DNA from: an uncultured Acidobacteriota bacterium
Lineage (GTDB): Bacteria; Acidobacteriota; Vicinamibacteria; Vicinamibacterales; UBA8438
Length of the DNA stretch: 64,000 nucleotides
Direction: 5' to 3'
Assembly: GCA_913043225.1 (NCBI GenBank)
Contig: CAJWLU010000011.1
Location: forward strand, 53,216 to 117,215
The position numbers were made by a program, and so were the translations under genes. Positions 45,285 through 62,473 of this stretch are shown one piece after another (position 1 is the first letter of the stretch; each line of letters begins with the position of its first letter). Under the pieces are notes generated by a model. That model searched no databases. It was given only the letters and a program-made list of their open reading frames with translations, and was not told the DNA's origin.

Positions 45285-47363
45285 TTACCCTACGTCAACA
45301 GTCTCGCTGTCCTTCTCCTTACCGCCGAGACCCTGGATCTGGATCACGCCGCTGCCCTCGGACTGCGGCTCCTTCAGGATGTGTTCGCGATACATCTTGG
45401 CCATACGCTCGTTCTCAGCCTTCTCCTTGGCTCGAGCCTCAAGCTTCTCCTGCCGGGCATTCTTGGCGATGCCTTGCTCGTCGAGATCGGTCTGGAGGCC
45501 GGCCGCCACCGCCTCGGGGTCGAGCACTAGGTTGTGCTCCTTGCTCTCCATATTGACGTCCTTGCCACCGGCGAAGATCTCGTGCCGACCGTGCTCGTCA
45601 TACCACTTGGTCAGCGTGGCGGTCATGTGCATCTTCTCGATGATGTTCCGCCACCCGATCCCGGTGTTGTAGGCACAGAACGAAATCTCCCCTTCCTGGG
45701 TAGCGTAGGGGATGATACAGCGCTCAGTACGCCGGAAGTCGTAATTGAACAGGTCCTGGAACCACATGCCGGCGATGAACAGGAAGTTCCATCGGTCGGC
45801 GCGCCGCTTCTTGATATCTGCCTGGGTCCGGTCGCCCGTCACCTTGCCGTAATCCTTGCCCGACGCCCCGAAAGTCTTGTCGAACTTCTGCACCAGGTCC
45901 AGCAGTTTGAAATGGGTCGGCGACTTGAACGGGTCGTAGTTCCGCACCAACGCCAGGGCCATACCCACGGTCGCCAGCTTGCGGCTCCGTCCGCCGTCAC
46001 TAACTCGGCCAAGGTCCTTGGCCAACCGTTCGGCCTTCAGGAACGCGGTCACCGGGACCGACTCCTTGGTGTCCTTGTCGATCATGACCGCCATGCCGAT
46101 GCCGCAGTTTGGATGGCAGCCACAGTTGAGCTGACCCCAGTCGGCCTGGGGCCCATGCATGTAGTCGGCCGAGTCGGTGAAGGTGCCCATGAATGAGATC
46201 GGAAACCAGTCACGCACCGGCTCGCCGATACCAGTTTGATCCTTCACGTCGTGCGCCAAGTGCGACAGTGTGTAGCGCTGGGCGTGCCGGCGGTCGTCGG
46301 TGATCTCCTCGTCACGGCCTGTGAACGACACCGGCTGGAACGACAGGAAGTTGATCTTCTTGGGATTGTCGAGCGCGAACTGCACCACCCGGCCGACCTG
46401 CTCGTTGTTGATCCCGTTGATGATAGTGATGACCGGAACGATATCGACACCGGCGTTGTGCAGGTTCTCAATCGCCCGCAGCTTGACATCGAACAGGTTA
46501 CCAACCAGGCGGTGTGAGTTGGCGGCGTTGCCGACGCCGTCGAACTGCAGATACGCGTAACGCAACCCGGCGTCTGCCGCTGCCCGCGCGAAGTCAGGGC
46601 TCTTGGCGAACTCGATGCCGTTGGTGGCCGCCTGGACGCTGTTGTAGCCGACCTTCCGGGCATAGCGGATGGCGTCCAGGAAGTAGGGCGAGATGCTCGG
46701 CTCGCCACCGGAGAACTGCACCGACATTTGCCGCTTCGGCTTGATGGAGATGGCGTTATCGAGCAGCGTCTTGATGTCGTCCCAGCCGAGTTCATGCACG
46801 AACCCCACCTGGTTCGCATCCATGAAGCACGGGTCGCACATCATGTTGCAGCGGTTAGTGAGGTCGATCGTCAACACCGACCCGCGACCGTACTTGATGG
46901 TGCTGCTGCCGTGGTTGTGTAGCTTCTCGTCGTTGTGGGCCCGCATGTCGGAGCCGGGAAACGAATCTTCGAGATGCTTGAAGAACTCAGTATCGATGGC
47001 CATCACGTCCTCGAAGCGGCCATGCTCTGGACAATCCTTGACCATCATGATCTTGCCGTCGCGCTCGATGATGGTGGCCTTGATCTCGCCGACCTTCTCC
47101 GTCTGCAGGATCCGGTAATCGACCTTGCCGTCGACAATCGACTGGCGCGCCTCACGCACACAGACCGGGCAGAGCGAGTCGGTCTCGCGCGGCCAACCTA
47201 GGGGCGGCTTCACCTTCTCCTTAGTCTTGAGCAGCGGCTTGTCGGCCCAGGCCGGAGTAAACGACGGGTTTTGACTGAATTGATTAAAAAAATCAAACAC
47301 CCGAAAACCGGCGTCTGCGACGATCGTGGCGCCCTTCTCCACATACTTAATAGGCTTATGCAT
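45285..47363 (-). CDS. Tes/GDGT-MAS (MJ0619-like) radical SAM protein, candidate membrane-spanning lipid synthase
   Basis: TDSLCPVC...KDCPEHG metal site, DLTNRCNMMCDPCF, QFSGGEP, ATNGI, YLQFDG, CGCHPNCG, FQDLFNYDFRRTERCIIPY...SFCAYN. Confidence 0.85.
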   Translation of the reverse strand: MHKPIKYVEKGATIVADAGFRVFDFFNQFSQNPSFTPAWADKPLLKTKEKVKPPLGWPRETDSLCPVCVREARQSIVDGKVDYRILQTEKVGEIKATIIERDGKIMMVKDCPEHGRFEDVMAIDTEFFKHLEDSFPGSDMRAHNDEKLHNHGSSTIKYGRGSVLTIDLTNRCNMMCDPCFMDANQVGFVHELGWDDIKTLLDNAISIKPKRQMSVQFSGGEPSISPYFLDAIRYARKVGYNSVQAATNGIEFAKSPDFARAAADAGLRYAYLQFDGVGNAANSHRLVGNLFDVKLRAIENLHNAGVDIVPVITIINGINNEQVGRVVQFALDNPKKINFLSFQPVSFTGRDEEITDDRRHAQRYTLSHLAHDVKDQTGIGEPVRDWFPISFMGTFTDSADYMHGPQADWGQLNCGCHPNCGIGMAVMIDKDTKESVPVTAFLKAERLAKDLGRVSDGGRSRKLATVGMALALVRNYDPFKSPTHFKLLDLVQKFDKTFGASGKDYGKVTGDRTQADIKKRRADRWNFLFIAGMWFQDLFNYDFRRTERCIIPYATQEGEISFCAYNTGIGWRNIIEKMHMTATLTKWYDEHGRHEIFAGGKDVNMESKEHNLVLDPEAVAAGLQTDLDEQGIAKNARQEKLEARAKEKAENERMAKMYREHILKEPQSEGSGVIQIQGLGGKEKDSETVDVG

Positions 47364-48316: not shown

Positions 48317-49465
48317 ATGCCCCGTTCGAATGAAGTCATCGTGATCGGTGCCGGCGTGTTCGGTGCCTGGACCGCGCTGCAACTGCGCCGCACTGGCCGC
48401 TCGGTCACCCTGCTCGATGCCTTTGGCACCGGCAACACCCGATCTAGCTCCAGCGGGGCAACTCGCGTCATCAGGATTGGTTACGGCGCCGACGCCATCT
48501 ATTCACGCTGGGCCCAGCGTTCCTTTCACGCCTGGCACGAGCTCTTCCGCGACTGGAAACAAGAGCTCTTCACACGCACAGGCGTCCTGTGGATGGCACG
48601 CAGCGAAGACCCGACGACCGACGAGACCATCGATGTCCTAGGCCGACTGCATGTACCGTTTGAAGTGCTCGACCGCGACGGGCTCGAAGAACGCTTCCCG
48701 CAGTTCAGCTTCGGTCCGATCAGTCGGGGTATCTTCGAGCCTAACGCCGGCACCATCATGGCCAGGCGAGCCGTTCAGATGGTGGTGCGACAGGCGGTCA
48801 AGCAGAGCGTCGACTACCGGATCGCCTCGGTTCTCCCTCCGCAGGAAGACGGTCCGATCGACAGCATCGTCACTTGCGACGGAGAGCGGTTGTCAGCCGG
48901 CACGTTCGTCTTCGCCTGCGGCCCCTGGCTACCGAAGCTGTTTCCCGACGTCCTGGGTAGCCGGATCCACCCGACCCGGCAGGAAGTGTTCTTCTTCGGC
49001 GCCGAACCTGGAGACCGACGCTATCTTCCGCCGGAAATGCCGGCCTGGGCCGATTTCGTCGGCGGCGTCTACGGCGTACCGGACATCGAGGGTCGCGGCT
49101 TCAAGATCGGTCTCGACCACCACGGTCCGCCATTCGACCCGGACACGGGCGAACGGATCGTTTCGGACGGCGCCTTGCAGGTGGCGCGCATGATCCTAGG
49201 CAAACGGGTGCCCTCTCTCGCGCACGCCCCGCTGCTCGAAGCCCGGGTCTGCCAGTATGCGAACAGCTGGAACGGGGACTTTCTGATCGACCGCCACCCG
49301 CGCCACGAGAACGTCTGGCTGGTCGGGGCCGGCTCGGGCCACGGCTTCAAGCATGGCCCAGCAGTCGGTGACTACGTCGCAGCTCAGCTGTCGGCCCGCG
49401 AGGACCCAGAACCGCGCTTCACGCTGACCGGCCATCGCGACAAGCAGGAGCGCGGCATCTTCTAG
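48317..49465 (+). CDS. Monomeric sarcosine oxidase/SolA-like FAD oxidoreductase
   Basis: VIGAGVFG, SSSGATRVIR, CQY (flavinylation Cys), DFLID, GSGHGFKHGP. Confidence 0.88.
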   Translation: MPRSNEVIVIGAGVFGAWTALQLRRTGRSVTLLDAFGTGNTRSSSSGATRVIRIGYGADAIYSRWAQRSFHAWHELFRDWKQELFTRTGVLWMARSEDPTTDETIDVLGRLHVPFEVLDRDGLEERFPQFSFGPISRGIFEPNAGTIMARRAVQMVVRQAVKQSVDYRIASVLPPQEDGPIDSIVTCDGERLSAGTFVFACGPWLPKLFPDVLGSRIHPTRQEVFFFGAEPGDRRYLPPEMPAWADFVGGVYGVPDIEGRGFKIGLDHHGPPFDPDTGERIVSDGALQVARMILGKRVPSLAHAPLLEARVCQYANSWNGDFLIDRHPRHENVWLVGAGSGHGFKHGPAVGDYVAAQLSAREDPEPRFTLTGHRDKQERGIF

Positions 49466-52005
49466 CAACAGTCCGAGTCGGGATCGCAACAGCCGGCATC
49501 AGGGTCGGCCCTCACGTCCTTTAGGCCGTTCGGACCATCCACGATCGAAAACGACCCGGCGTATGGTGCCTGAGACAGTTTCGCTGCTGTATCGGTGCAC
49601 ACCTCGACCGCTTCCCCCCTAGGAAAGAGGTGGCCTTCCTCGTCGATGACCCCCTTCTGCGGACCGAGATAGATAGCGTACTGGCCGATGAACCGGCAAC
49701 CGGCCTTCTTCTCGAACTTGTAGCCACGGACGGTCACCGAATAGAACTTGCAGCCCTCGACCTCCCGCCAGAAATTCTTCTTGAGCACCGACAACCCATA
49801 AAACCCGGCCTTCTCCACGCCGGTCAGGAAAGCCTCCTCAGTGAGGGCGCCGGAAATGCATTCACCCCATAGCTGCCCATCGGCGCGCATCTTGGGCGAC
49901 ACCTCCTCCTCGGACACGATATCGGCTACCACGAACCGTCCGTGGTCTTTGAGCACTCGCCAGATCTCACGAAACACCCGCGGCTTGTCCGGCGAGAGAT
50001 TGATGACGCAGTTGGACGTCACGACATCCACAGCGCCATCGCCAACCGGAATCTCTTCGAGGAATCCCTGGCGGAACTCGACGGCGTCATACCCCAGCGC
50101 CGCTGCCACCTTGGGCTGGCACTCCCGGGCCACCGAGAGCATCTGGTCGGTCATATCGACCCCGTAGATCCGTCCCTCGGCGCCCACCTTCTTCGCCGCA
50201 ATGAAGCAATCAATGCCGGCCCCTGACCCGAGGTCAACCATCGATTCACCAGGCACCAACGCGGCCGCGGCAACCGGGCTACCGCACCCGTAGAAGCGCT
50301 CGACCACCTCTGACGGTATGTGCGCCAAGTCCCCAGCCGACGGCTGCACGGGGCAGCACAACTCCTCCTGCGGCTTCTCCGCCGCATTGCCGTAGAACTC
50401 GCGCACGGTGTAGCGTGACTTGTCGAGTACCTCTTCGGACAGAACGCACGCCGAGTGTGTCGTCCGCACGATGATGTCCTCCTCGTGCAGGGTCTGCTGG
50501 CCCATCCCCCGAAGCACCACCGGACGGTCGTAGCCGGAACGCGGCTGCAGTGCTCTCCGGCCCTCACGGATCAAGTCGCGCAAGGTGTCGTCGGCCAGCC
50601 CCTTGTAAAGGTCACAGTAGGGATCGTGGGCAACGAACGCCGCGCGTCTGGTCGCGCCCTCGGCCGCGGCCCCCCAGTAGCCATGTTCGACATCGCCACC
50701 GCCACACAGATACCTGAGCCCGCAGGAACGACACTGCGGTTTGCGTTCGACCGTGGCGTCCCGAAGGTCGCGGAACACCTGGCTCTCACGCCAGATGTCG
50801 GCCAGTGAGGCCTCTGCAAGATCACCGCAGGCCAGGTCCTCGACACCAGCCATCGACGCGGAGGGATAGAGCCGGCCGTCGGTGTAGAGACACAGGCTGT
50901 TCCAGCCAGCCCCTGCCAGATCGTTCTTGACCCCAGGACGGCCATCGAACCGGAGACGAAACTCTTCGATGTTATCGATCGACACACCCAGTTCGTCGGC
51001 TACCACTCCCGCCTTCCGCACCGCAGCCAGGATTTCGTCAGCCGAGGGTAGGTCAGCGAACACCCCTTCGAGCACCCGACCGCGACGGTGGGGCCAGAGC
51101 AGGTGCAGGTTCCGCACTCCGTGCGCATGGGCCAGACGCACCAACCGGTCTAATACGTCGAGATTGTGGCGCAGGATGGTCGCGGTCAGCGTCGGTCGCA
51201 AACCGGCGGCCACCGCGGTGTCGATGCCGTCGAGGATGCGCTGGAACGTACCCTCACCACGGATCGGATCGTTGGTCTCCGCCGTCGGTCCGTCGAGGCT
51301 GATCTGCACCCGCAGTCGGGGCGTGGATGCAGAGGGGTCGATTGCCTCGGCGGCTGCCGCCTCGGCCTCCAGACTTAGCGCTACAAGTCGGTCAAACCGT
51401 TCGCCCTTGAAGACCGTGCCGTTGGTCAGCACTACCAGCTCCCTCCGAAGCGTGCGCACGACATGGTCGATCAGCTCGAGAATGTCTGGTCGAGCCAGTG
51501 GCTCTCCGCCAGTGAAGAACAGCCGCGATGCCCCGAGCGCCACCGCCTGATCGATGGCGTCCGTGATCCGCTCGGTCGACAGGCCCTGTTCCCGCTGCGG
51601 TCCGGACGACACCAGACAATGCGCGCAGCTGAGATTGCAGAAGTCGTTGACCTGAACCCAAAGCTCGGATAACCGCTCGGTGTCGAGATACGCCGACCGA
51701 CCGAGATAGGGGGCCGGCGCGGCGCCGTTGGTCGAGAGAAACCCGTGGCGGAGACCGTCATGCGCGAACGTCTCGACGTGCAGCCAGGAGCGCATGACGT
51801 CGAGACCGCTCTCACTGGCATAGTCACGCACGACCTGCGCAAATGGCGTGCGGCCGTCGAACCGGCCAAGCAACCGAAGACCACGTTCGTCGGTACCGAT
51901 CCAGTGGGGGCTGGCCGGATCAAGTGCCACCACGCCTCCATCGACCGGGTGGACAGAGTAGGCCGGGGCACACAGAATCGTCTGGTCTTCAATATGAGTA
52001 GCCAT
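49462..52005 (-). CDS. Fusion of PqqD/RRE-like region, radical SAM, SPASM and ArsM-like arsenite methyltransferase (847 aa)
   Basis: CNLSCAHC, FTGGEP, CRSCGLRYLCGGG; then VREFYG..ELCCP, YGCGSP, DLGSGAGID, GVDMT..ML, SNCVINL, WGECISGA; Cys-rich tail GCCDPDSDCC. Confidence 0.9.
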   Translation of the reverse strand: MATHIEDQTILCAPAYSVHPVDGGVVALDPASPHWIGTDERGLRLLGRFDGRTPFAQVVRDYASESGLDVMRSWLHVETFAHDGLRHGFLSTNGAAPAPYLGRSAYLDTERLSELWVQVNDFCNLSCAHCLVSSGPQREQGLSTERITDAIDQAVALGASRLFFTGGEPLARPDILELIDHVVRTLRRELVVLTNGTVFKGERFDRLVALSLEAEAAAAEAIDPSASTPRLRVQISLDGPTAETNDPIRGEGTFQRILDGIDTAVAAGLRPTLTATILRHNLDVLDRLVRLAHAHGVRNLHLLWPHRRGRVLEGVFADLPSADEILAAVRKAGVVADELGVSIDNIEEFRLRFDGRPGVKNDLAGAGWNSLCLYTDGRLYPSASMAGVEDLACGDLAEASLADIWRESQVFRDLRDATVERKPQCRSCGLRYLCGGGDVEHGYWGAAAEGATRRAAFVAHDPYCDLYKGLADDTLRDLIREGRRALQPRSGYDRPVVLRGMGQQTLHEEDIIVRTTHSACVLSEEVLDKSRYTVREFYGNAAEKPQEELCCPVQPSAGDLAHIPSEVVERFYGCGSPVAAAALVPGESMVDLGSGAGIDCFIAAKKVGAEGRIYGVDMTDQMLSVARECQPKVAAALGYDAVEFRQGFLEEIPVGDGAVDVVTSNCVINLSPDKPRVFREIWRVLKDHGRFVVADIVSEEEVSPKMRADGQLWGECISGALTEEAFLTGVEKAGFYGLSVLKKNFWREVEGCKFYSVTVRGYKFEKKAGCRFIGQYAIYLGPQKGVIDEEGHLFPRGEAVEVCTDTAAKLSQAPYAGSFSIVDGPNGLKDVRADPDAGCCDPDSDCC

Positions 52006-52042
52006 AGGACGCTTCTTGGACGCGCGGCGCCAACAGAAAGTT

Positions 52043-52672
52043 TCAGCCGACGTCGGCGCCGACCCGGGGAGTCGCCACCTCACGTCGCGCGGGCCTCCTG
52101 GCGTAGTTGAACCAGATCCGGCTGCCCAGTAATACAGCGAGGACCACCGCATAGACCAGCGGCGGACGGATGTCGATCTTCACCAGCCAAAGATAGTGCA
52201 CGACCCCGGCGATGGCGGCGAGATAGGCCAAGCGATGCAACTGGCGCCAGCGTGCGCCTCCGAGACGGCGGATCATCCCTCGGGTCGACGTGATCGCCAG
52301 TGGGACCAACATGACGAACCCGGCGAAACCGGCGGTCACATACCGGCGTTCGACGATGTCATCGAAAATGAGGGTGAAATCGAAGAAGAAATCGAGCACC
52401 AGATAGGTGCTGAAGTGCAGGGTGGCGTAGAAGAAGGCGAACAGGCCCAGCATGCGCCGGTAATCGGCCACCCAGCCCCAGCCCGTGAATTTCCGGATGG
52501 GCGTGACCGCCAGCGCCAACAGCAGGAACCGGAGTGCCCAGTCCCCCGTTCGGTGCGTGATGTCCTCGATCGGGTTAGCGGTCAGACCCCCCGTCGCGGC
52601 GGCCCAGAGTAGCAGACCCAGAGGGGCCAGGGCCGCGGTGAATACCCACAACTTCGCGCGGCTGACCGCCAT
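52043..52672 (-). CDS. msrQ: Sulfoxide reductase heme-binding subunit MsrQ (YedZ)
   Basis: ANPIE..TH.TG.WAL, LAVTP, RRMLGLFAFFY..LH, W..LHRL.Y. Confidence 0.95.
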   Translation of the reverse strand: MAVSRAKLWVFTAALAPLGLLLWAAATGGLTANPIEDITHRTGDWALRFLLLALAVTPIRKFTGWGWVADYRRMLGLFAFFYATLHFSTYLVLDFFFDFTLIFDDIVERRYVTAGFAGFVMLVPLAITSTRGMIRRLGGARWRQLHRLAYLAAIAGVVHYLWLVKIDIRPPLVYAVVLAVLLGSRIWFNYARRPARREVATPRVGADVG

Positions 52673-52675
52673 AAG

Positions 52676-53635
52676 TCAGTAGTTCTCGGCGAGGTCCATC
52701 CCCTCGTAGAGGCTAGCAACCTGATCGGCGTACCCGTTAAACATCTGGGTCCGCATCCGGAAGAAGCTGCCAATCCGACGCTCACTCGCCTGGCTCCACC
52801 GGGGGTGATCCACCTCGGAATTGACGTTCGAGTAGAACCCGTACTCGTTCGGGATAGCCACGTTCCAGGAATTGCGAGGCTGGTCCTCCACAAACTGGAT
52901 CTTAACGATCGACTTGATACTCTTGAACCCATACTTCCAGGGCACCACGAGCCGCAGCGGAGCGCCTTGCTGGTTCAGCAACGTCTTGCCGTAGACACCT
53001 ACCGCCAGGATGGTGAGCGGATGCATCGCTTCGTCCATCCGCAACCCCTCGACGTAGGGCCACTCGAGGGACGGACCACGCTGCCCCCGCATCTCATCGG
53101 GCCGATAGAGGGTCTCGAACCGGACGTACTTAGCCTTCGAGGTCGGCTCGAACCGCTTGATAAGGTCTCCGAGCGGGAACCCGACCCAGGGCACGACCAT
53201 AGACCACGCCTCGACGCAGCGGAGCCTGTAAATCCGCTCCTCAAGCGTATGGGGGCCGAGAAGGTCCTCAATGGGCACGTCTCCAGCCGGCCGGTTCATC
53301 TCGCCCTCGACCCGCACCGACCAGGGGTCGATCGACATCTCGTGTGCGTAACGGGCCGGGTCGCCCTTGTCGAGGCCAAACTCGTAGAAATTGTTGTAGG
53401 TCGTGATGTCCTCGAACGAATTGAGTTCCTCGTCCGTGCTGAACGGAGACTTCACCAGGTCCGGAATGTCCTGCTGGGCAGACACCGTCCCGTCATACTG
53501 GCCAAGAATCGACGCGCCGGACACGGCGCCAAGCGCCGCACCCGAGGTCGCCTTGATGAACTGCCGACGGTTTCGGTAGAGGTGCTCGGGGGTAATCTCG
53601 GATGAACGGATGTCCGGTGCCTGCCTGATCAGCAT
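52676..53635 (-). CDS. msrP: Protein-methionine-sulfoxide reductase catalytic subunit MsrP (YedY)
   Basis: SEITP...NRRQF Tat signal, [36 protein letters not shown]. Confidence 0.97.
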
Positions 53636-53692
53636 TTGTCTCTCCGCGCGGTTACCGGTTCACGACGTGGGCCAGTACACACTAGTTCCCGC

Positions 53693-54493
53693 TCATCGTC
53701 GCCTCCAGCCGCTTGGGTTGTCAACGGGACTCCGGTGGTCCGGGCCTCGGTCTCCCTCGGTAATCTGGCACCCGAGGGGTGGGCAACGGCGTCCCCCGTC
53801 ACTCCATACCGGATAAGACGCCGCCAGGCTCTGGGGGGACTGTCCTGCGAGGTGCCTCACCAGGATCGAGAGGTTGCCCCCGGTCCGTCGCCACCAGCCA
53901 TCACGCTGCCACCGGCGGGCAGAGACGGTAATCGGTAACCTGGCGCGATGGAACCGGCCGGTCCGTCGTAGACGACGCACGAGATCGGCGTCCTCCATCA
54001 GCGGCTGCTCCTGGTAGCCTCCCAGTACCTCGAATCGTTCCCGCTTGACGAAGAGCCCCTGGTCGCCGTAGGCCACGCCGAGCCACCGCACCCGGAGTCG
54101 AACGCCCCACTCAATGAGACGCGGTTGCCACCCCTGGGCATCGATGGCCAGCCGGTAGCACCCGGCGCTCGCACCGCGCGCTTCGGCCTCGGCGAACGCG
54201 CCGGCCCATCCCTCGGACAGCAGCGCGTCGGCATGAAGGAACAACAACCAACGGCCGACTGCCCGGGCCGCTCCGGCGTTCATCTGCGCCCCCCGACCCC
54301 GAACGCCATCGACCCACACCACGTCAGGCCGGGCCCGACGCAACGGTTCGATCTCGATGTCGTCCTGGGCACCATTAGCCACGATGAGCTGGCGTTCTGG
54401 AGCAGGCCGCAGGGTCGCAAGCAGCCGACCCAGTGGTTCGGCGTCTCGATAGACGGGAATAACGACCGACAACGCGGTCTCAGGCATGGACAC
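53693..54493 (-). CDS. GT2 glycosyltransferase, TIGR04283-like
   Basis: SVVIP, GRGAQMNAGA, LLFLHAD, YGDQGLF, PLMED, SARRW. Confidence 0.88.
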   Translation of the reverse strand: MSMPETALSVVIPVYRDAEPLGRLLATLRPAPERQLIVANGAQDDIEIEPLRRARPDVVWVDGVRGRGAQMNAGAARAVGRWLLFLHADALLSEGWAGAFAEAEARGASAGCYRLAIDAQGWQPRLIEWGVRLRVRWLGVAYGDQGLFVKRERFEVLGGYQEQPLMEDADLVRRLRRTGRFHRARLPITVSARRWQRDGWWRRTGGNLSILVRHLAGQSPQSLAASYPVWSDGGRRCPPLGCQITEGDRGPDHRSPVDNPSGWRRR

Positions 54494-55176
54494 TAGCTCG
54501 AGGCCGCGGGCAGCCCGAGGAACGTGGTGACTTCGACCCAGAGCCGGTCCAAATCGGTCTTGAGTTGATGGTCGTCGGCGAGCAGGACGAGGTCGACCCG
54601 CGACCGACCGGCCGCGAATCGCTGCACCATGGCAGGATCGACGATGTCGTCTCGACTCCCCTGCAGGATCAGCGTCGGGACCATAGTCTCGATGGCGAAG
54701 CTATCATACCGCTGCGCGTCAGCGTACAGGTCATAGCAAAGCTCAACGCGCTCCCCGGTACCGTAGTGCTCGATCTCCAGCACACCACCCTCACGCCAGG
54801 CCTCGAGTTCGGCCACGCTCAGGCCCGTCATTCCACGTCGACCAAAATCGAGCGCGGGGGCAAGCATTACCAAGCGCTCGACCGGCGTTCGGACCTCGGC
54901 GCCAGACGCCTGGCGTTCCCGATTGCGCTCGGCCACGTGTGCGGCCACGAACGCCCCCAGACTGGATCCCAGCAGCGCGACTGGGCCCGGGGTCAGTTTA
55001 TCCATCAACGATTCGACCTGCTCGATCATCCGCGTGGTGGTCATCGTCGCGAACTCTGGCTGGTTCAAGTCCGGACAATGCAGGCGCACACCGATCGCCG
55101 CCAGCCGCTCCCGCAGAAACACCGCCTTCGAAGACTTAGGCGACGATGCAAACCCGTGGAGATAGATAAGATGCAC
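54493..55176 (-). CDS. YqiA/YcfP-like alpha/beta hydrolase
   Basis: YLHGFASSP.S.K, GSSLG, QG..DD, DDH catalytic triad. Confidence 0.9.
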   Translation of the reverse strand: MHLIYLHGFASSPKSSKAVFLRERLAAIGVRLHCPDLNQPEFATMTTTRMIEQVESLMDKLTPGPVALLGSSLGAFVAAHVAERNRERQASGAEVRTPVERLVMLAPALDFGRRGMTGLSVAELEAWREGGVLEIEHYGTGERVELCYDLYADAQRYDSFAIETMVPTLILQGSRDDIVDPAMVQRFAAGRSRVDLVLLADDHQLKTDLDRLWVEVTTFLGLPAASS

Positions 55177-55191
55177 GGCCTCACCAGCGCG

Positions 55192-55605
55192 CTAGAGCCA
55201 AGTCTGACAGCCAGGACGACATCGACAGGGAATCTCCTTGTCACCATCGGTGTGATAGTCGTAGGCCAACTCTTCACCCTCCTCGATCCGCTTGCCGGCA
55301 ATGATCCAGATGACGCCACCAATGATATTGGCGTAACAGTTCGGCGTACACGAGTGATTGATGAACCGCGCCACGTTGCCCCTCACGTTGGCGTCGATCA
55401 CCCAGTGGGTGTTGATACGAAAACACCAGATCTCTCCTCGTCGAAGATACCGGTCCTCGCGGTCCTCGCTTTCCTTCGACGAAATCTTCTCGCCCTCGTA
55501 TCTGATGATCCGTTTGTTTTTGTTGAGACCTTCCTCGGCGAACACGCCCCACCCGTGGAGCTTTGACCGTTTCCGCTTGATTTTCGGGAGATAGATCTCA
55601 CCCAC
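55192..55605 (-). CDS. SET domain protein-lysine methyltransferase
   Basis: HGWGVFA, RFINHSCTPNC, GEELAYDY, post-SET CRC..C. Confidence 0.93.
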   Translation of the reverse strand: MGEIYLPKIKRKRSKLHGWGVFAEEGLNKNKRIIRYEGEKISSKESEDREDRYLRRGEIWCFRINTHWVIDANVRGNVARFINHSCTPNCYANIIGGVIWIIAGKRIEEGEELAYDYHTDGDKEIPCRCRPGCQTWL

Positions 55606-56834: not shown

Positions 56835-59800
56835 CTAATAGAAGTCGCGGGAATCAGGCGTCGCTTTAGTGTGCGTGAAGTCGTGGAAACGCTCGGCGCG
56901 CACTGAAGCAACGCCATTCTGCAGCTGAAGCACTCCCTCTACCAGCAGAAACGGCCGCTGGAGGATCGTCACCTGCTCGGTGGCAAAGACATCGGGTTTG
57001 ACGATAATGTTCGCCACTCCCGTCTCATCCTCCAAGGTCAGAAACACAAAGCCTTTGGCCGTCCCCGGGCGCTGGCGCGTAATAACGTTACCTGCCACCC
57101 TTACCCGACGTCCATGCCGCCCCTGGGGCAAATCAATCGCCCGCAGCACGCCTCGCAAGGCCAGCTCCTGTCGTCTGAAGGCAACTGGATGGGGGCCGAT
57201 GGTCACCCCGGTACCCGCATAGTCGGCCACCACCCGCTCTTCCGGCGACATCTTTGGCAACGGCGCGCCTTCCCGCGCCGTAGAATGCGAGGCGCGCTTT
57301 GGCGGGCGATCCCGCTTCTCTTTAAACAACTCGCCAGGGTCCCGCACCGCTCGCTCGACCTGCCACAATGCCGTCCGCCGGTCGTATCCGAACGCGTTGA
57401 GCGCACCAATCTCGGCCAACGTGGCCAACTCGTCTCGTCGAACCCCCGTGCGTTCGACCAGATCTTCGATAGAACTGAACCGCACTCTTTCGGTCCGTGG
57501 CAACTCAGGCAGCCAGTCGGCCGCACAGAGGCTGCAGAACCCCCTCGCGCGGGCGGTGTCCTGATCCACCACCTCGACCATCAACGGGTCGTCGCACCCG
57601 CACTTGGGACACGCCAGCGTGATGGCATCGCTCGCGTGGCGACGACGGTCGGTCCCGACCGCCGCCATTGCCTTCCCCTGTTCAGCCCGCAAGCCGGTCA
57701 CATAGCGCAATCCAAGGCGAATTGCGCCATCCTGCTCCACGGTGCAGTCCCAGTCCGAATGCTGAACATCGATGCGAGCAAACCGGACCCCGCGGCGCTG
57801 GGCATCCTTCACCAGGGTGGCGGGATGGTAGAACCCCATCGGCTGGTTGTTGAGCAGTGCCGTGTAGAAGGCCGCCGGGTAATGCGCCTTGAGATAGACG
57901 CTGGCATAGACCAACAGCGCGAAACTCGCGGCATGCGACTCGGGAAAACCATAGAGCGCAAACGAGGTGATCGCGCGCACGATCTCATCGGCCGGCGCAC
58001 CCGTGATCCCGCGTGTCGCCATTCCCTCACGCAACGACACTTCGATCTCGGTCATCCGACGTTCCGAACGCTTGAACCCGAACGCCCGCCGCAATTCCTC
58101 CGCCTGCCCGCCCGAGAACCCGGCCGCCACCATCGCCACGCGTAACAGCTGTTCCTGGAACAGTGGCACGCCCAGCGTCCGGCGCAGGATCGGCTCGAGC
58201 GAGGGATGGGGGTACTCGACCGGCTCTCGACCAGACCGGCGCTTCATATAGGGATGCACCATATGTCCCACGATGGGACCAGGCCGGATAATGGCCACTT
58301 CCACCACGATGTCGTAGAAGCACTTCGGCTTTAGACGCGGAAGCGTAGCTATCTGCGCGCGAGATTCGACCTGGAACACCCCGATGGTATCGGCCTGCTG
58401 CAGCATCTCGTAGACGGCCGGATCGTCGGGAGGCAACCGGGCCAGATCGATCGCTCCCGAGCGATCCGGCCCACCCCGATCTCGGTTGATGAGCGCGAAG
58501 GCCTCCTGCAACGCAGCCATCATGCCCAGACCGAGAAGATCGACCTTCACGATACCCATGTCGGCGCAATCGTCTTTATCCCACTGCACCACGACCCGCC
58601 CAGGCATGGTGGCGGGCTCGAGCGGCACCACTTCGTCGAGCCGTCCCTGGCAGATGACCATGCCTCCCGAGTGCTGCCCCAAATGACGAGGCAGGTCCTG
58701 GATCCGCCGCCACAGCATCCCGAACCGTTGGATCCGCGGGTCTTCGAACTCGCTCCCCACATCGGCCAGCTGACGGCTCAACGAGTCGTCCGGGTCGGTC
58801 CATTCGAAGTTATTCATGACCTTGGCCAGCCGATCGATCTGGCCTGAATCGATCGACAATGTCTTCCCCACGTCCCGCGCCGCGCTCCGCCCCTGGTAGG
58901 TGATGACGTTGGCGGTCATACCCACTCCCAGCTGGCCATACCGCTCGTAGACGTACTGGATGACCTGTTCCCGGCGATCGCCACTCGGTAGATCCAGATC
59001 GATGTCCGGCCACTCGCCACGCTCCTCGGACAGGAAACGTTCGAAGAGCAGGTCCATCCCCACCGGATCGACCGCCGTGATCCCCAGGCTGTAGCAAACG
59101 GCGCTGTTGGCGGCCGACCCTCGCCCTTGCACCAAAATATCCTGCTGCCGGCAGAAGTTGACGAGGTCCCAAACGATGAGGAAATACCCGGCCAGCTCGA
59201 GCTTCTCGATCAGGTCGAGCTCGCGCGCAATCTGGCGGCGAGCGCGCTCGTGATACGGCCGATACCGTTCACGCGCACCAACCTCCGTAATCGCGCGAAG
59301 GAACGCAATCATCGTGTCGCCAGTCGGCACCGGATAGGTGGGAAAGCGGTAGCCGAGATCGGCCATGGTGTAGCTCAGCCGTTCAGCGAGCTCCCCGACC
59401 GTGGTGAGAGCTTTGGGCTGGTCCCGAAACAGACGACGCATCGCTGCGGGCGACTTGAGATACCGCTCAGCATTCCGGCCCAGTCGACGACCCGCCTGAG
59501 CGAGCGTGGTCTTGTGCCGAAGACAGCTCAGGACGTCGTAGAGGGGACGGTCTTCCGGTGCGGCGAACCGCACCCCATTTGTGGCGACCAACGGCACCCG
59601 GTAGGCATCAGCCAGCGCAAGCAACGCCTGGTTATCGACAGCTTCGTCTCGAGTCAGATGTCGCTGCAGTTCGACAAACACCTGGGACCGACCGAAGATC
59701 CCCAGTAATCGGTCGAGCAACCCACCGACACCGTAGCGGTGCCCCATCAGAGCCGCCCGCCCCGCTAGCACAACCAGCCCTTGTGCGTGCTCCTCCAAAT

Positions 59801-60176
59801 CCTCGAGGGTGAGCGCCGCTTCGCCCTTGGGCACCTCAAGCTTCCGCCTGGTCAGCAGTCGGCACAAATTGCGATAACCCTGCTGAGTTTCCACCAGTAC
59901 GGGCAACCGCCAGCACCCGGCCAGCGCGGGCGCGTCGCGCTCCGCGCCATGTGCGCCGTCCCATCCTTTCGAGATGGTCAGTTCGCATCCGACAATCGGC
60001 TTAATCCCTGCCGCCTGGGCGGCCTTGTAAAACCGAGGCGCCCCATAGACTCCATCGCGATCGAGTAAGGCCAGCGCTGGATAGTCCAGCGCGGCCGCCC
60101 GGGCGACCAACGCCTCGGGGAGCGACGCTCCATCAAGGAAGGAAAAGGCGGACGCCGCATGGAGCTCGACGAACAT
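56835..60176 (-). CDS. dnaE2: Error-prone DNA polymerase DnaE2 (ImuC)
   Basis: ELHAASAFSFLDGAS, GRGSAANS, PDIDLD, PRHLGQHSGG, YGFPESHA, QPMGFY, RQRPGTAKG, terminal SRDFY. Confidence 0.97.
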   Translation of the reverse strand: MFVELHAASAFSFLDGASLPEALVARAAALDYPALALLDRDGVYGAPRFYKAAQAAGIKPIVGCELTISKGWDGAHGAERDAPALAGCWRLPVLVETQQGYRNLCRLLTRRKLEVPKGEAALTLEDLEEHAQGLVVLAGRAALMGHRYGVGGLLDRLLGIFGRSQVFVELQRHLTRDEAVDNQALLALADAYRVPLVATNGVRFAAPEDRPLYDVLSCLRHKTTLAQAGRRLGRNAERYLKSPAAMRRLFRDQPKALTTVGELAERLSYTMADLGYRFPTYPVPTGDTMIAFLRAITEVGARERYRPYHERARRQIARELDLIEKLELAGYFLIVWDLVNFCRQQDILVQGRGSAANSAVCYSLGITAVDPVGMDLLFERFLSEERGEWPDIDLDLPSGDRREQVIQYVYERYGQLGVGMTANVITYQGRSAARDVGKTLSIDSGQIDRLAKVMNNFEWTDPDDSLSRQLADVGSEFEDPRIQRFGMLWRRIQDLPRHLGQHSGGMVICQGRLDEVVPLEPATMPGRVVVQWDKDDCADMGIVKVDLLGLGMMAALQEAFALINRDRGGPDRSGAIDLARLPPDDPAVYEMLQQADTIGVFQVESRAQIATLPRLKPKCFYDIVVEVAIIRPGPIVGHMVHPYMKRRSGREPVEYPHPSLEPILRRTLGVPLFQEQLLRVAMVAAGFSGGQAEELRRAFGFKRSERRMTEIEVSLREGMATRGITGAPADEIVRAITSFALYGFPESHAASFALLVYASVYLKAHYPAAFYTALLNNQPMGFYHPATLVKDAQRRGVRFARIDVQHSDWDCTVEQDGAIRLGLRYVTGLRAEQGKAMAAVGTDRRRHASDAITLACPKCGCDDPLMVEVVDQDTARARGFCSLCAADWLPELPRTERVRFSSIEDLVERTGVRRDELATLAEIGALNAFGYDRRTALWQVERAVRDPGELFKEKRDRPPKRASHSTAREGAPLPKMSPEERVVADYAGTGVTIGPHPVAFRRQELALRGVLRAIDLPQGRHGRRVRVAGNVITRQRPGTAKGFVFLTLEDETGVANIIVKPDVFATEQVTILQRPFLLVEGVLQLQNGVASVRAERFHDFTHTKATPDSRDFY

Positions 60177-60191
60177 AACGGACGACGACGT

Positions 60192-61736
60192 CTAATCCAC
60201 CATCGCGTCGACGAACCAGCGGTCGGTCTGGCGATCGAGGAAGATGCGATATACGCCGCCGTCGGCCAGTGACACATCCCACTCGTCGCGGTCCCAGGCT
60301 CCGGGGGTCGTAGGGGCGGAATCGGCAGACGGTTCGTGGTCGGCGTCCTGCCACCACTCGCCCGACTCGCGCCAGGGACCAGCAGCTTGCCGTACGGCGC
60401 CGCCAATCACACGGGGAGCGGTGACGCGCACCGGACGCCCGTGCTCCACCGTGACCCTGGCGGCGACCGGCGCGCGATAGCGACGCAACATTGGCCGTAA
60501 CGGCGAAGCGCCCGGACACGCGCCAAGCCGACGCCAATCACCCTCGATCGCGGTTTCGCGGACGGTGTCGCTCTTTGTCCGCTTCGTTTTCCAGGAAGCG
60601 GACCGAGGCTGGGACCGGGCTCGTAACGGATTCGACGATGAATCGGCCGGAGCGAACGCCCGCATCTCGACGCGGTCGGCCCCATGGGAATCGAGCACGC
60701 CCGGAGAACCACAGCGCTCTTCGCCGACCAGCGCCGTCAACCGCGCCATCAACACCGACATCTTTTCCGGCGATGGCTGCACCTGTTCGAGCAGCGAGAA
60801 CTGCTGGGTGCGCGCCGGCACCTGATCCACACGAACCGTCACCTGGTCGATGCCGGCTGCCGGCGGGTGTGACTCGAGATCGAGCAAGATCAGCGTGCGT
60901 AAGACCTTCGGATCCTTGATCGACATGGGCAGCTGGAGCGTCCGGGTATACAGCTCCTTGGTCACCAGCTTTAGGTGCACGTGTAGCACGGCGGCACCCA
61001 CACCCGCCCGCTCGAGTCTGGTGCAGAGCGGATCGAGCACTCGCCCCAGGACAAACGACAACGGCTCGAGCCCTTCAACCGGCCACTCGATCGCCAGTGA
61101 CGACTCGAACCACTCCTCGGCCGACGCGGGTACCAACGGCGCTTCGTCTTCACCCTGGGCAAACCGCTGCAAGGCCAACCCGCCCGCCCCCAACCGCTCG
61201 AACAGCTCGGGAGCCGGGAGCCGCGCCAAGTCTCCCAGCGTACGGAGCCCCCAGCGCCTTACGATCGACAGCAGGGCGAAGGCCGAAACAGCAGGCGGCG
61301 CGCTGGCCGCGCTCGTCCCCTGTCGTGTCCGGGTCGACGATTCCTGGGCCTGTTCGCGATCCAGCGCTTTCAAGGTATCAAGCGACAGCGGGGCCAGCGT
61401 CTTCGCCTCTTCACCGGGCGCTATCACCGTCAACCCACTCCGTTCCTGCACGACTAACTGGCCAGCAGTGCGGGTCGAAGCGATCGCAATCCGCACATAC
61501 AGGCGGGCCTCGGCGGCCGAACGTCGCAGGCTCTCCCCCAGCTCTCGGTCGTCACCGAACATCGTGGTCAGCCCCGCGGTGTCAAGCACCACTAGGTTGT
61601 CACCATGCACTTCAATACGAGGCGAATACTCCCGAGCCAGACGCACGAGCCGGTCGGTGACTCGGGCGGGACGAGGCACCCCATCGCCGGAGCGAAACGC
61701 CAACCCGCGCTGAGGCGCGTAGAGACAGGCAAACAT
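60192..61736 (-). CDS. imuB: Y-family polymerase-like ImuB
   Basis: MFACL, YSPRIE, WGLRTLGDLA, QFSLL clamp-binding-like motif, AGPWRESGEWW..WDRDEW; TGATG overlap with imuA. Confidence 0.88.
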   Translation of the reverse strand: MFACLYAPQRGLAFRSGDGVPRPARVTDRLVRLAREYSPRIEVHGDNLVVLDTAGLTTMFGDDRELGESLRRSAAEARLYVRIAIASTRTAGQLVVQERSGLTVIAPGEEAKTLAPLSLDTLKALDREQAQESSTRTRQGTSAASAPPAVSAFALLSIVRRWGLRTLGDLARLPAPELFERLGAGGLALQRFAQGEDEAPLVPASAEEWFESSLAIEWPVEGLEPLSFVLGRVLDPLCTRLERAGVGAAVLHVHLKLVTKELYTRTLQLPMSIKDPKVLRTLILLDLESHPPAAGIDQVTVRVDQVPARTQQFSLLEQVQPSPEKMSVLMARLTALVGEERCGSPGVLDSHGADRVEMRAFAPADSSSNPLRARSQPRSASWKTKRTKSDTVRETAIEGDWRRLGACPGASPLRPMLRRYRAPVAARVTVEHGRPVRVTAPRVIGGAVRQAAGPWRESGEWWQDADHEPSADSAPTTPGAWDRDEWDVSLADGGVYRIFLDRQTDRWFVDAMVD

Positions 61737-62473
61737 CACTGCTCCTCCGGTGTGGGATAGGTGGACCGTAAGGTGACAAACGCGTCCACCGGGCGGCGAA
61801 TGCGAATGACCTGCGCGCGCGATTCCAGTCCCTCGAAGACTCGGCCGCGATCGTGGTCGCCGGCCCAACCCGCTTCGACGTTCCCATCGAGCACAACCGT
61901 CTGCCCTTCCGAACTCCGAGCCACCGGCTCTGGCGCTAGCACGAGACCTACCGTGCGACTATGCTCGAGCACCCGCGACAACCTGAGCCAGGTCGTCATC
62001 GGCAACTGCCGCAGCACCCGTATGGGCACATCGGAGAGATCCAACGCGACAACGCCGAATCCTCCCGCGTCCAGCACCAGATTCATCGCCTTGATTGCCT
62101 GCTTCACTGTCTGGGCCAAATCCCGCGTACGCTCACGACCGCGAATCCAGAGCAAGCTCGACAGGTCCAGACCCGCGGCCGCGGCCGACACCGGGTCGAA
62201 CCGATCGCAGGCGTCGACCAGCGCCAGCAGCTCTCCACGGGCCATCGCGGCTCCGCACACGGTGGTCAACACCCCGGTGCGGCCCGAAGACCCGGCGCCG
62301 ACTATCTCCGACAGATGTCCACGAGGGAAGCCACCGCCGAGCAGCTCGTCCAGCGCGGCCAGACCTGTTCCGGCCAGATCCGACGTCTTTGGGTCAAATG
62401 AGTGAGAGGTAGTGCGGTCGAGCTTTCGCTCTCGCAACAGCGATTCGAGTCGAGCAACGGAGGCTGCAGTCAT
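61736..62473 (-). CDS. imuA: RecA-like ImuA protein
   Basis: TGLAALDELLGGGFPRG..SEIVG..SSGRT degenerate Walker A; first gene of the cassette. Confidence 0.85.
   Translation of the reverse strand: MTAASVARLESLLRERKLDRTTSHSFDPKTSDLAGTGLAALDELLGGGFPRGHLSEIVGAGSSGRTGVLTTVCGAAMARGELLALVDACDRFDPVSAAAAGLDLSSLLWIRGRERTRDLAQTVKQAIKAMNLVLDAGGFGVVALDLSDVPIRVLRQLPMTTWLRLSRVLEHSRTVGLVLAPEPVARSSEGQTVVLDGNVEAGWAGDHDRGRVFEGLESRAQVIRIRRPVDAFVTLRSTYPTPEEQ

Follow-up and report, generated by a model that had tools for sequence, protein, structure and literature searches.

We analysed a stretch of 64,000 nucleotides (the window) from the genome of an uncultured bacterium of the order Vicinamibacterales, phylum Acidobacteriota (contig CAJWLU010000011.1, positions 53,216 to 117,215; the genome is 96% complete, in 55 contigs). 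A minus-strand gene of the window, at 52005-49462, encodes an 847-aa protein in which a radical S-adenosylmethionine (SAM) module is joined to an ArsM-type arsenite methyltransferase, and whose closest homologues are from Acidobacteria/Vicinamibacterales. This fusion is a real, uncharacterised enzyme, probably a variant of the biosynthesis of carbon-arsenic (C-As) bonds, and its sequence suggests that organic arsenic compounds are its probable products, made along a route that has not been described. Our preferred reading, to which we assign a probability of about 0.55, is that the ArsM domain would make dimethylarsenite (DMAs(III)), that a single linker cysteine, Cys520, would carry it to the radical site, and that the 5'-deoxyadenosyl radical would there add to the arsenic.

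The fusion was not described in the literature searched, which included the accessible parts of PMC9312934, PMC13188914, PMC9582695 and PMC12159101 and whose coverage ended short of supplements and the primary papers on ArsS; the accessible part of PMC12159101 names two radical SAM enzymes that make C-As bonds, ArsS and ArsL, and no others. Its named database members carry generic names ('methyltransferase domain-containing protein'). New here are the exclusion from the pathway of the co-oriented upstream genes for the methionine sulfoxide reductase system MsrPQ, a hydrolase and a SET-domain protein, a promoter element before msrP, the stepwise loss of auxiliary iron-sulfur clusters, the recurrence of Cys520 across architectures, and genomes with ArsS that lack ArsM.

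Architecture of the fusion protein

The open reading frame (ORF) of the original prediction is present, but its start is the ATG at 52005, where the homologues start, and not 52152. None of the best 25 of 76 NCBIfam models reaches its cut-off on the protein, and its domain matches are Radical_SAM, a weak SPASM and an ArsM-like match. An AlphaFold2 model built from 45 homologues (pLDDT 85, pTM 0.81) aligned over residues 14-482 with CteB (Z 30.8, rmsd 4.4, 412 residues aligned), a maturase of ribosomally synthesised and post-translationally modified peptides (RiPPs), and over residues 548-827 with ArsM/AS3MT structures. As modelled, the protein is a RiPP recognition element (RRE) followed by radical SAM, SPASM, linker and ArsM. 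A single-sequence fold of residues 1-530 was discarded (pLDDT 33). Conservation is given below for the 59 fusion ORFs that were aligned, of 64 (770 aa or more), and all coordinates in the window are on the minus strand.

The PqqD/RRE-like N-terminal domain (about aa 10-90; 51736-51978) was recognised from the structural alignments to CteB and TigE, which begin at residues 9-14 (CteB at 14), and from PF05402 on homologues; no Pfam match was found on the first 100 aa of the fusion itself. P33, W35 and G42 of this domain are invariant among the homologues. The CX3CX2C radical SAM motif (C123/C127/C130; 51616-51639) is present in 59/59, PF04055 scores 82 bits, and a partial TIM barrel is supported by the structure match. 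Behind it lies a degenerate SPASM domain (aa 360-470; 50596-50928), whose fold is indicated by PF13186 (29.3 against 21.5) and anSME (Z 29.8). According to the accessible part of PMC5715301, the SPASM subfamily is defined by a seven-Cys motif that binds two auxiliary clusters. When the fusion was aligned with PqqE, using ligand numbers from the same part of that paper, the AuxI ligand positions were found to hold A364, S382 and D438, so that the seven-Cys motif is incomplete for want of the AuxI cysteines. Only three of the 59 homologues, the most divergent Nitrospirota forms, have Cys at all three positions, and 56 lack them; the AuxII motif (C425/C428/C434/C464) is kept in the window's protein and lost in 11. 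H306, R310, K360, D362, D438, E440 and H441 form a polar pocket that is invariant or nearly so. A B12-dependent radical SAM gene comes directly after the Cys-complete Nitrospirota fusions (L105, 12336-13820; L107, 12325-13803; L106).

The linker (aa 489-525; 50431-50541) contains Cys520 (codon 50448-50446), which is present in all 59 aligned fusions. The same motif ends the radical SAM module in 19 of 21 ArsM fusions, all 19 long forms and all seven TIGR04282-like fusions among the distant relatives described below, and a terminal motif of this type occurs in 20 of 47 unfused homologues. Judging from this distribution, Cys520 is the best candidate for an arsenic carrier.

The ArsM/AS3MT-type methyltransferase (49534-50421) comprises C551/C574/C666/C716 and the AS3MT C-terminal domain. 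In phmmer comparisons with CrArsM and CmArsM (E 2e-39 to 4e-39), C574, C666 and C716 align directly with cysteines of these enzymes and C551 with the N-terminal one; the conserved cysteines of CmArsM are 44, 72, 174 and 224 in the accessible part of PMC6138428. Each of the four is invariant (59/59). The top 11 Foldseek matches listed for this half were all ArsM/AS3MT structures, and the ArsM models of NCBIfam stay under their cut-offs (NF008823, 232 against 263; NF038099, 145 against 400; NF040538, 194 against 500). The four catalytic cysteines, like the C-terminal domain, are common to the fusion and to CmArsM, CrArsM and human AS3MT, from which it differs by a 525-aa radical SAM module ahead of ArsM. 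A Cys-rich C-terminal tail (aa 839-847; 49465-49491), of low pLDDT, ends in CC in 56 of the 59.

The radical SAM half resembles ArsS in its N-terminal core only. TIGR04167 (ArsS) scores 56 bits against a cut-off of 300, over positions 3-142 of 303, and identity with the ArsS of a genome from the same family is 27% over 154 aa; an ArsS is taken here to exceed the cut-off with a full-length match that includes the Cys-rich C-terminal region, and the fusion does neither. RCCLKC, the arsenic-binding motif of ArsL in the available parts of bioRxiv 2024.02.01.577332 and bioRxiv 2026.04.29.721666, and the CCXXC tail are likewise absent from the radical SAM module, which has the single-Cys motif of C520, and the CC tail follows ArsM. 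Judged by sequence, the radical SAM half is neither ArsS nor ArsL, in agreement with the original prediction of a fused non-ArsS radical SAM enzyme, and the ArsM-type domain joined to it is complete.

The ArsM plus ArsS arsenosugar system (NF038099 and TIGR04167) also combines an arsenite methyltransferase with a radical SAM enzyme, and the accessory genes TIGR04283, TIGR04282, PRK06370 oxidoreductase, VTT and PiT flank either set; the fusion differs in being one polypeptide with an RRE/SPASM-type radical SAM half, and, unlike in ArsS systems, no TIGR04169 partner was found in the window's genome. ArsL plus ArsM, which make arsinothricin, are likewise a radical SAM enzyme and an ArsM. ArsL holds arsenic by cysteines outside the cluster motif, as far as the available text of its description goes, and Cys520 or the tail is proposed to do so in the fusion; the differences are the missing RCCLKC tail on the radical SAM domain, the NF040538 score and the glycosyltransferase context. 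With the RiPP maturases CteB, TigE, SkfB and PqqE the fusion has the RRE-radical SAM-SPASM fold in common, and it differs from them in lacking AuxI cysteines and a recurring precursor ORF and in carrying a C-terminal ArsM. No small ORF (20-95 aa) recurred across lineages among 2450 tested within 4 kb of the fusion in 63 loci, a search whose scope was those 4 kb and not a distant precursor.

The radical SAM family was also examined through the best 150 distant matches to the N-terminal half, of which 136 were new identifiers and 103 of these were 430 aa or longer. Among the 103 were 23 radical SAM-ArsM proteins, 19 with a further C-terminal domain (DUF5714 in 6/6 scanned, the rest labelled by length), one with ArsM and TIGR04283, three with ArsM first, seven behind a TIGR04282-like domain (one of four scanned over the cut-off), and 43 alone or fragmentary. 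Thus, 53 of the 103 are joined to ArsM (46) or to a TIGR04282-like domain (7). In a quick tree with a midpoint root, the ArsM-first and TIGR04282 fusions fall outside the 53-row AuxI-less clade that holds the window's protein, and the link to these partners therefore arose more than once. The seven proteins with a TIGR04282-like domain ahead of a full SPASM radical SAM (P0138, P0158, P0163, P0170, P0188, P0193 and P0199) end in an F-x-C-I motif, an architecture that is unnamed. The radical SAM-ArsM-DUF5714 (MbdU-like) triple fusions P0082, P0098, P0107, P0121, P0137 and P0156, of about 1000-1080 aa, lack both auxiliary-cluster motifs.

The fusion in other genomes

We fetched 77 loci and mapped the 63 that have a near-complete fusion; the other 14 (L103 and L108-L120, partial or ArsM-only matches) were left out of the counts. 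Up to 10 kb per side was considered, several contigs being shorter. The fusion lies in the same chromosomal block as in the window in 26 loci and elsewhere in 37, a grouping made from gene maps and lineage labels and therefore not wholly independent of the feature; in the tree, too, the 26 belong to Vicinamibacteria. Near the fusion in the 37 loci outside the block we found TIGR04283 in 11, TIGR04282 in 13 and either of them in 18, together with PRK06370-like (12), VTT (10), PiT (13), DUF547 (5), GT-C (4) and DUF3047 (3) genes. Any arsenosugar-type accessory gene other than PiT occurs in 25 of the 37; with PiT the raw count was 29, and 26 after removal of oxidoreductase matches under 38% identity or under 150 bits. 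The co-localisation that the original prediction expected was thus found across phyla for the TIGR04283 glycosyltransferase, a companion of the fusion, and not for msrPQ. In two genomes of the same order (L137 and L138), an arsM gene and a separate arsS gene are flanked by these accessory genes, and the fusion therefore fills the arsM-arsS slot. A purine nucleoside phosphorylase gene follows the fusion in two Omnitrophota loci.

In the window, the TIGR04283 GT2 glycosyltransferase (54493-53693, minus strand) scores 210 bits against a cut-off of 182 over positions 1-221 of 221. TIGR04282, PRK06370 and DUF547 genes, all over their cut-offs, are on contigs C3, C17 and C16 of the same genome; GT-C, PiT and DUF3047 were not found there by tblastn with the queries used, and Acr3 is represented only by a 40-aa piece on a small contig. 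The arsenosugar-type set of methyltransferase, radical SAM, TIGR04283 and TIGR04282 is therefore present but not clustered, TIGR04283 alone adjoining the fusion, and the window's GT2 gene may be a remnant of an arsenosugar-type accessory cluster. On contig C3 (L005, 1393-3146), the TIGR04282 gene overlaps an HpnL/flippase-like membrane gene next to recR, and in many relatives TIGR04282 lies in open frames of about 570-690 aa, suggesting its fusion with the HpnL/flippase-like gene. In L054, L057, L071, L093, L094 and L098, TIGR04283 is joined to another GT2 domain and an MptA/B-GT87 membrane glycosyltransferase comes next, a hint that the ancestral cluster transferred sugars by way of a lipid carrier.

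Among 37 genomes of the window's family, 19 have the fusion, 17 have ArsS over the cut-off, two have both and three have neither. ArsS was found in three of 36 other fusion-bearing metagenome-assembled genomes, whose completeness is not known and for which there is no background rate. A Fisher test of fusion against ArsS (p 1e-5) was not relied on, since the genomes are related.

Proposed mechanism and alternatives

The fusion may be a single-chain stand-in for ArsM plus ArsS. The ArsM domain would use SAM to convert As(III) to mono- and dimethylarsenite, a step proposed with strong confidence. The methylarsenite may then be handed to Cys520 of the linker, modelled where a C-terminal segment closes the barrel, and the radical SAM cluster may cleave SAM to give the radical that adds to arsenic; both of these steps are proposed with moderate confidence. 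Viperin and BlsE chains align with the fusion model as far as residues 521-529, and in the available part of bioRxiv 2023.09.13.557418 the C-terminal extension of viperin closes the barrel, which hints at a linker folded back across the active site. (The tagged anSME chain 4K36 overlaps the model up to residue 528, and no meaning was read into this.) The arsenic radical would give its electron back to the cluster, making the auxiliary clusters, which are being lost, dispensable. The accessible text of PMC13598754 describes ArsS adenosylation as redox-neutral, with the arsenic radical re-reducing the cluster, and a reaction of this kind would account for the loss of auxiliary clusters. The likeliest product would be 5'-deoxy-5'-dimethylarsinoyl-adenosine or a close analogue, with which the nucleoside phosphorylase gene after the fusion in the two loci fits, and it would be passed to TIGR04283/TIGR04282-type enzymes, the latter encoded on another contig here. 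The msrPQ, hydrolase and SET genes would belong to an old chromosomal block of the order, and MsrPQ would be no pathway enzyme.

Several observations weigh against this mechanism. The strong conservation of the RRE is not explained by it, and the structural ranges give only the first and last aligned residues, so that the position of Cys520 over the barrel is a hint. Two of the 103 distant relatives (P0080 and P0088) are fused to TusA sulfur-carrier domains and five to another methyltransferase, one of these a broken ArsM and four non-ArsM. Neither an accessory gene nor PiT was found at 11 of the 37 loci outside the block, eight of them in Nitrospirota, and the functions of TIGR04282 and TIGR04283 are NCBIfam labels, with no paper testing them found in the literature searched. 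TIGR04283 and TIGR04282 each occur in 36 of the 37 family genomes, including those with neither enzyme, and therefore do not depend on the fusion. The alternation of fusion and ArsS follows genera (nine fusion-only, five ArsS-only, one with both, one mixed and two with neither). Finally, 13 of the 15 ArsS-only family genomes gave no ArsM-like match at E<=1e-15, and arsS was paired with TIGR04169, away from glycosyltransferase genes, in 10 of 10 loci fetched; the complementarity is therefore not a clean exchange of the fusion for ArsM plus ArsS. These results suggest that the ArsM-less genomes use external dimethylarsenic or another substrate. The TIGR04169-arsS two-gene unit was seen at scattered loci (L127-L136, in G003, G006, G010, G011, G013, G022, G023, G027, G034 and G035).

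An arsenic substrate may also meet another radical chemistry, either ArsL-like aminocarboxypropyl transfer or hydrogen abstraction from a methylarsenical followed by coupling, giving an unidentified organoarsenical. This is unlikely in our estimate, though it is the foremost of the alternatives: the radical SAM half shares only its N-terminal core with ArsS, its remodelled polar pocket is nearly invariant, and ArsL, a CX3CX2C enzyme, cleaves SAM the other way (bioRxiv 2024.02.01.577332, available part), whereas the sugar-transfer neighbours and the nucleoside phosphorylase fit a ribose-bearing product and the RCCLKC tail is missing. We consider it rather improbable that the radical SAM half matures a peptide or protein, or acts in sulfur or selenium chemistry, with ArsM tailoring the product or merely co-regulated and with the RRE binding either the linker or a partner whose gene lies elsewhere. 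The architecture and the best folds, those of the RiPP maturases CteB, TigE, ChlB and SuiB, point that way, as do the invariant RRE residues and the TusA and generic methyltransferase fusions, which are among the Cys-retaining relatives. However, the small-ORF search was negative across the 63 loci, there is no room for a precursor beside the fusion in the window (a 37-nt gap on one side and a convergent overlap on the other), the auxiliary clusters, which maturases typically employ as far as the sources available go, are being lost in this family, and fusion to ArsM and TIGR04282/04283 is repeated. That only the ArsM half matters, for detoxifying methylation, while the radical SAM half decays, is very improbable: SPASM cysteines are indeed lost and the fusion is missing from 18 of the 37 family genomes, but about ten phyla share an invariant CX3CX2C motif and many other invariant positions in the N-half, the lost cysteines were replaced by conserved residues and not randomised, and the 63 shorter matches revealed no family of intact, stand-alone close homologues of the N-half.

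The least probable alternative, by a little, is that of the original prediction, in which all six co-oriented genes form one pathway and MsrPQ serves the fusion by reducing species with As=O or S=O groups. The six ORFs are all where they had been placed on the minus strand, in the order SET-domain protein (55605-55192; PF00856), UPF0227/YqiA-like alpha/beta hydrolase with a GSSLG motif (55176-54493), GT2, msrP (53635-52676), msrQ (52672-52043) and fusion, and their tight spacing (15, -1, 57, 3 and 37 nt) favours a common pathway. Moreover, no more than 10 kb separate msrP from the fusion in 11 of the 19 fusion-bearing family genomes and from TIGR04283 in 14 of 17 fusion-less ones, a further two families of the order have msrPQ in the midst of accessory genes (L153 and L154), and in L099, from another lineage, msrP directly precedes the fusion, without msrQ. 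The last is the sole such case outside the block, where msrP is near the fusion in one of 37 loci and msrQ, SET and YqiA in none, though 17 of 36 genomes encode MsrP. Within the family, msrP occurs in 36 of 37 genomes regardless of the fusion. The 15 distinct fusions that adjoin msrQ fall into a single clade (SH-aLRT 100), so that the adjacency is one inherited event, and in the sister clade a GT-C gene takes that place. Of 31 family genomes, 23 have YqiA close to msrP, as do 11 of 18 from other families, eight of these 11 without TIGR04283 nearby, and in five genomes TIGR04283 is gone while YqiA, msrPQ and the fusion are still together. The YqiA-msrP synteny without the fusion and the one-clade adjacency therefore indicate an old SET-YqiA...msrPQ synteny into which arsenic-type genes are interleaved. 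MsrPQ repairs periplasmic methionine sulfoxide, and MsrP is periplasmic; the MsrP of the window has a Tat-type RRxF motif and the fusion has no export signal, which would place them in different compartments, and msrP has a promoter element of its own. No MsrPQ-arsenic link appeared in the titles and abstract openings of the literature matches listed. The msrPQ, hydrolase and SET genes, the last two kept by lineage synteny only, look like inherited neighbours of the fusion and not pathway members; the MsrPQ link does not hold up and adds little to the significance of the locus.

Returning to the proposed adenosylation of arsenic by the fusion, a wider reading, which is tentative, is that a RiPP-maturase scaffold turned into a third independent C-As bond-forming family, shedding its auxiliary Fe-S clusters stepwise, with its own C-terminal peptide as a built-in 'precursor' and a single Cys of this peptide bringing methylarsenite to the radical site from the ArsM domain. 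If so, the repeated fusions with ArsM, TIGR04282 and TIGR04283 span about ten mostly uncultured phyla, and uncultured Vicinamibacterales and others would be a possible unrecognised source of arsenosugars or of an unidentified organoarsenical. With a third scaffold, unrelated to the other two and contained in one expressible chain, the known producers of organoarsenic compounds would extend beyond cyanobacteria, and the fusion would give a marker gene that ArsS-based surveys miss. The family would also offer a natural series for probing the role of the SPASM clusters, in which the auxiliary clusters number two, one or none.

The msrPQ genes and their surroundings

MsrP (NF003767, 460 bits against 207), with its RRQF motif and Mo-ligand C140, and MsrQ (NF003831, 178.5 bits against 130) are ordinary members of the MsrPQ system in a lineage-conserved position, with no difference found, and like TIGR04283 both exceed their curated cut-offs. 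Of the YqiA-like label, the Pfam assignment (UPF0227) stands and the equivalog does not (NF008291, 36 bits against 252). A convergent plus-strand oxidase gene overlaps the stop of the fusion by 4 nt, and the minus-strand run therefore ends at the fusion. The GC and GC3 of the six genes are inside the range of their neighbours, SET being lower in GC, and give no signal of a foreign island. Six MsrP matches contain one in-frame TGA and are possibly selenocysteine forms (G067, G068, G069, G079, G080 and G082).

A sigma70-like element, TTGACA-N18-GACGAT (53724-53695, minus strand), precedes msrP within the non-conserved tail of the GT2 ORF. The pattern TTGACA-N17/18-nAnnAT, chosen post hoc after viewing the same sequences, occurs in 20 of 27 upstream regions of msrP, with about 0 expected from shuffles, and in none of the upstream regions of the fusion (0/59), GT2 (0/38) or YqiA (0/34). 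The possible promoter of the original prediction is thus a conserved promoter-like element, as predicted from sequence. A generic scan for promoters and terminators was at chance level, and this element was not among its matches. An ECF-type promoter (GGAAC-N16-CGTC) before msrP was rejected; it is in the window, yet in only one of the 27 upstream regions. In this clade the fusion is probably read through from the msrP promoter, and co-regulation of msrPQ and the fusion is plausible. Pieces of 95-99% identity from four RNA runs (0.05-0.06 word share, short contigs) touch all six genes; among the 32 RNA pieces listed (27 besides), GT2-msrP and msrQ-fusion are unbridged, and DNA in the libraries is possible. 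Three contigs stop at 53658-53666, just before msrP, and were not used as evidence.

Two other features of the window lie on the minus strand. An imuB-like gene and the error-prone polymerase gene dnaE2, the latter over its cut-off, are at 56835-61868 and are gone from this position in several relatives. A 692-aa radical SAM protein encoded at 45285-47363 resembles the tetraether lipid synthase Tes (313 bits against a cut-off of 450), and it is kept in position across the family at 77-90% identity.

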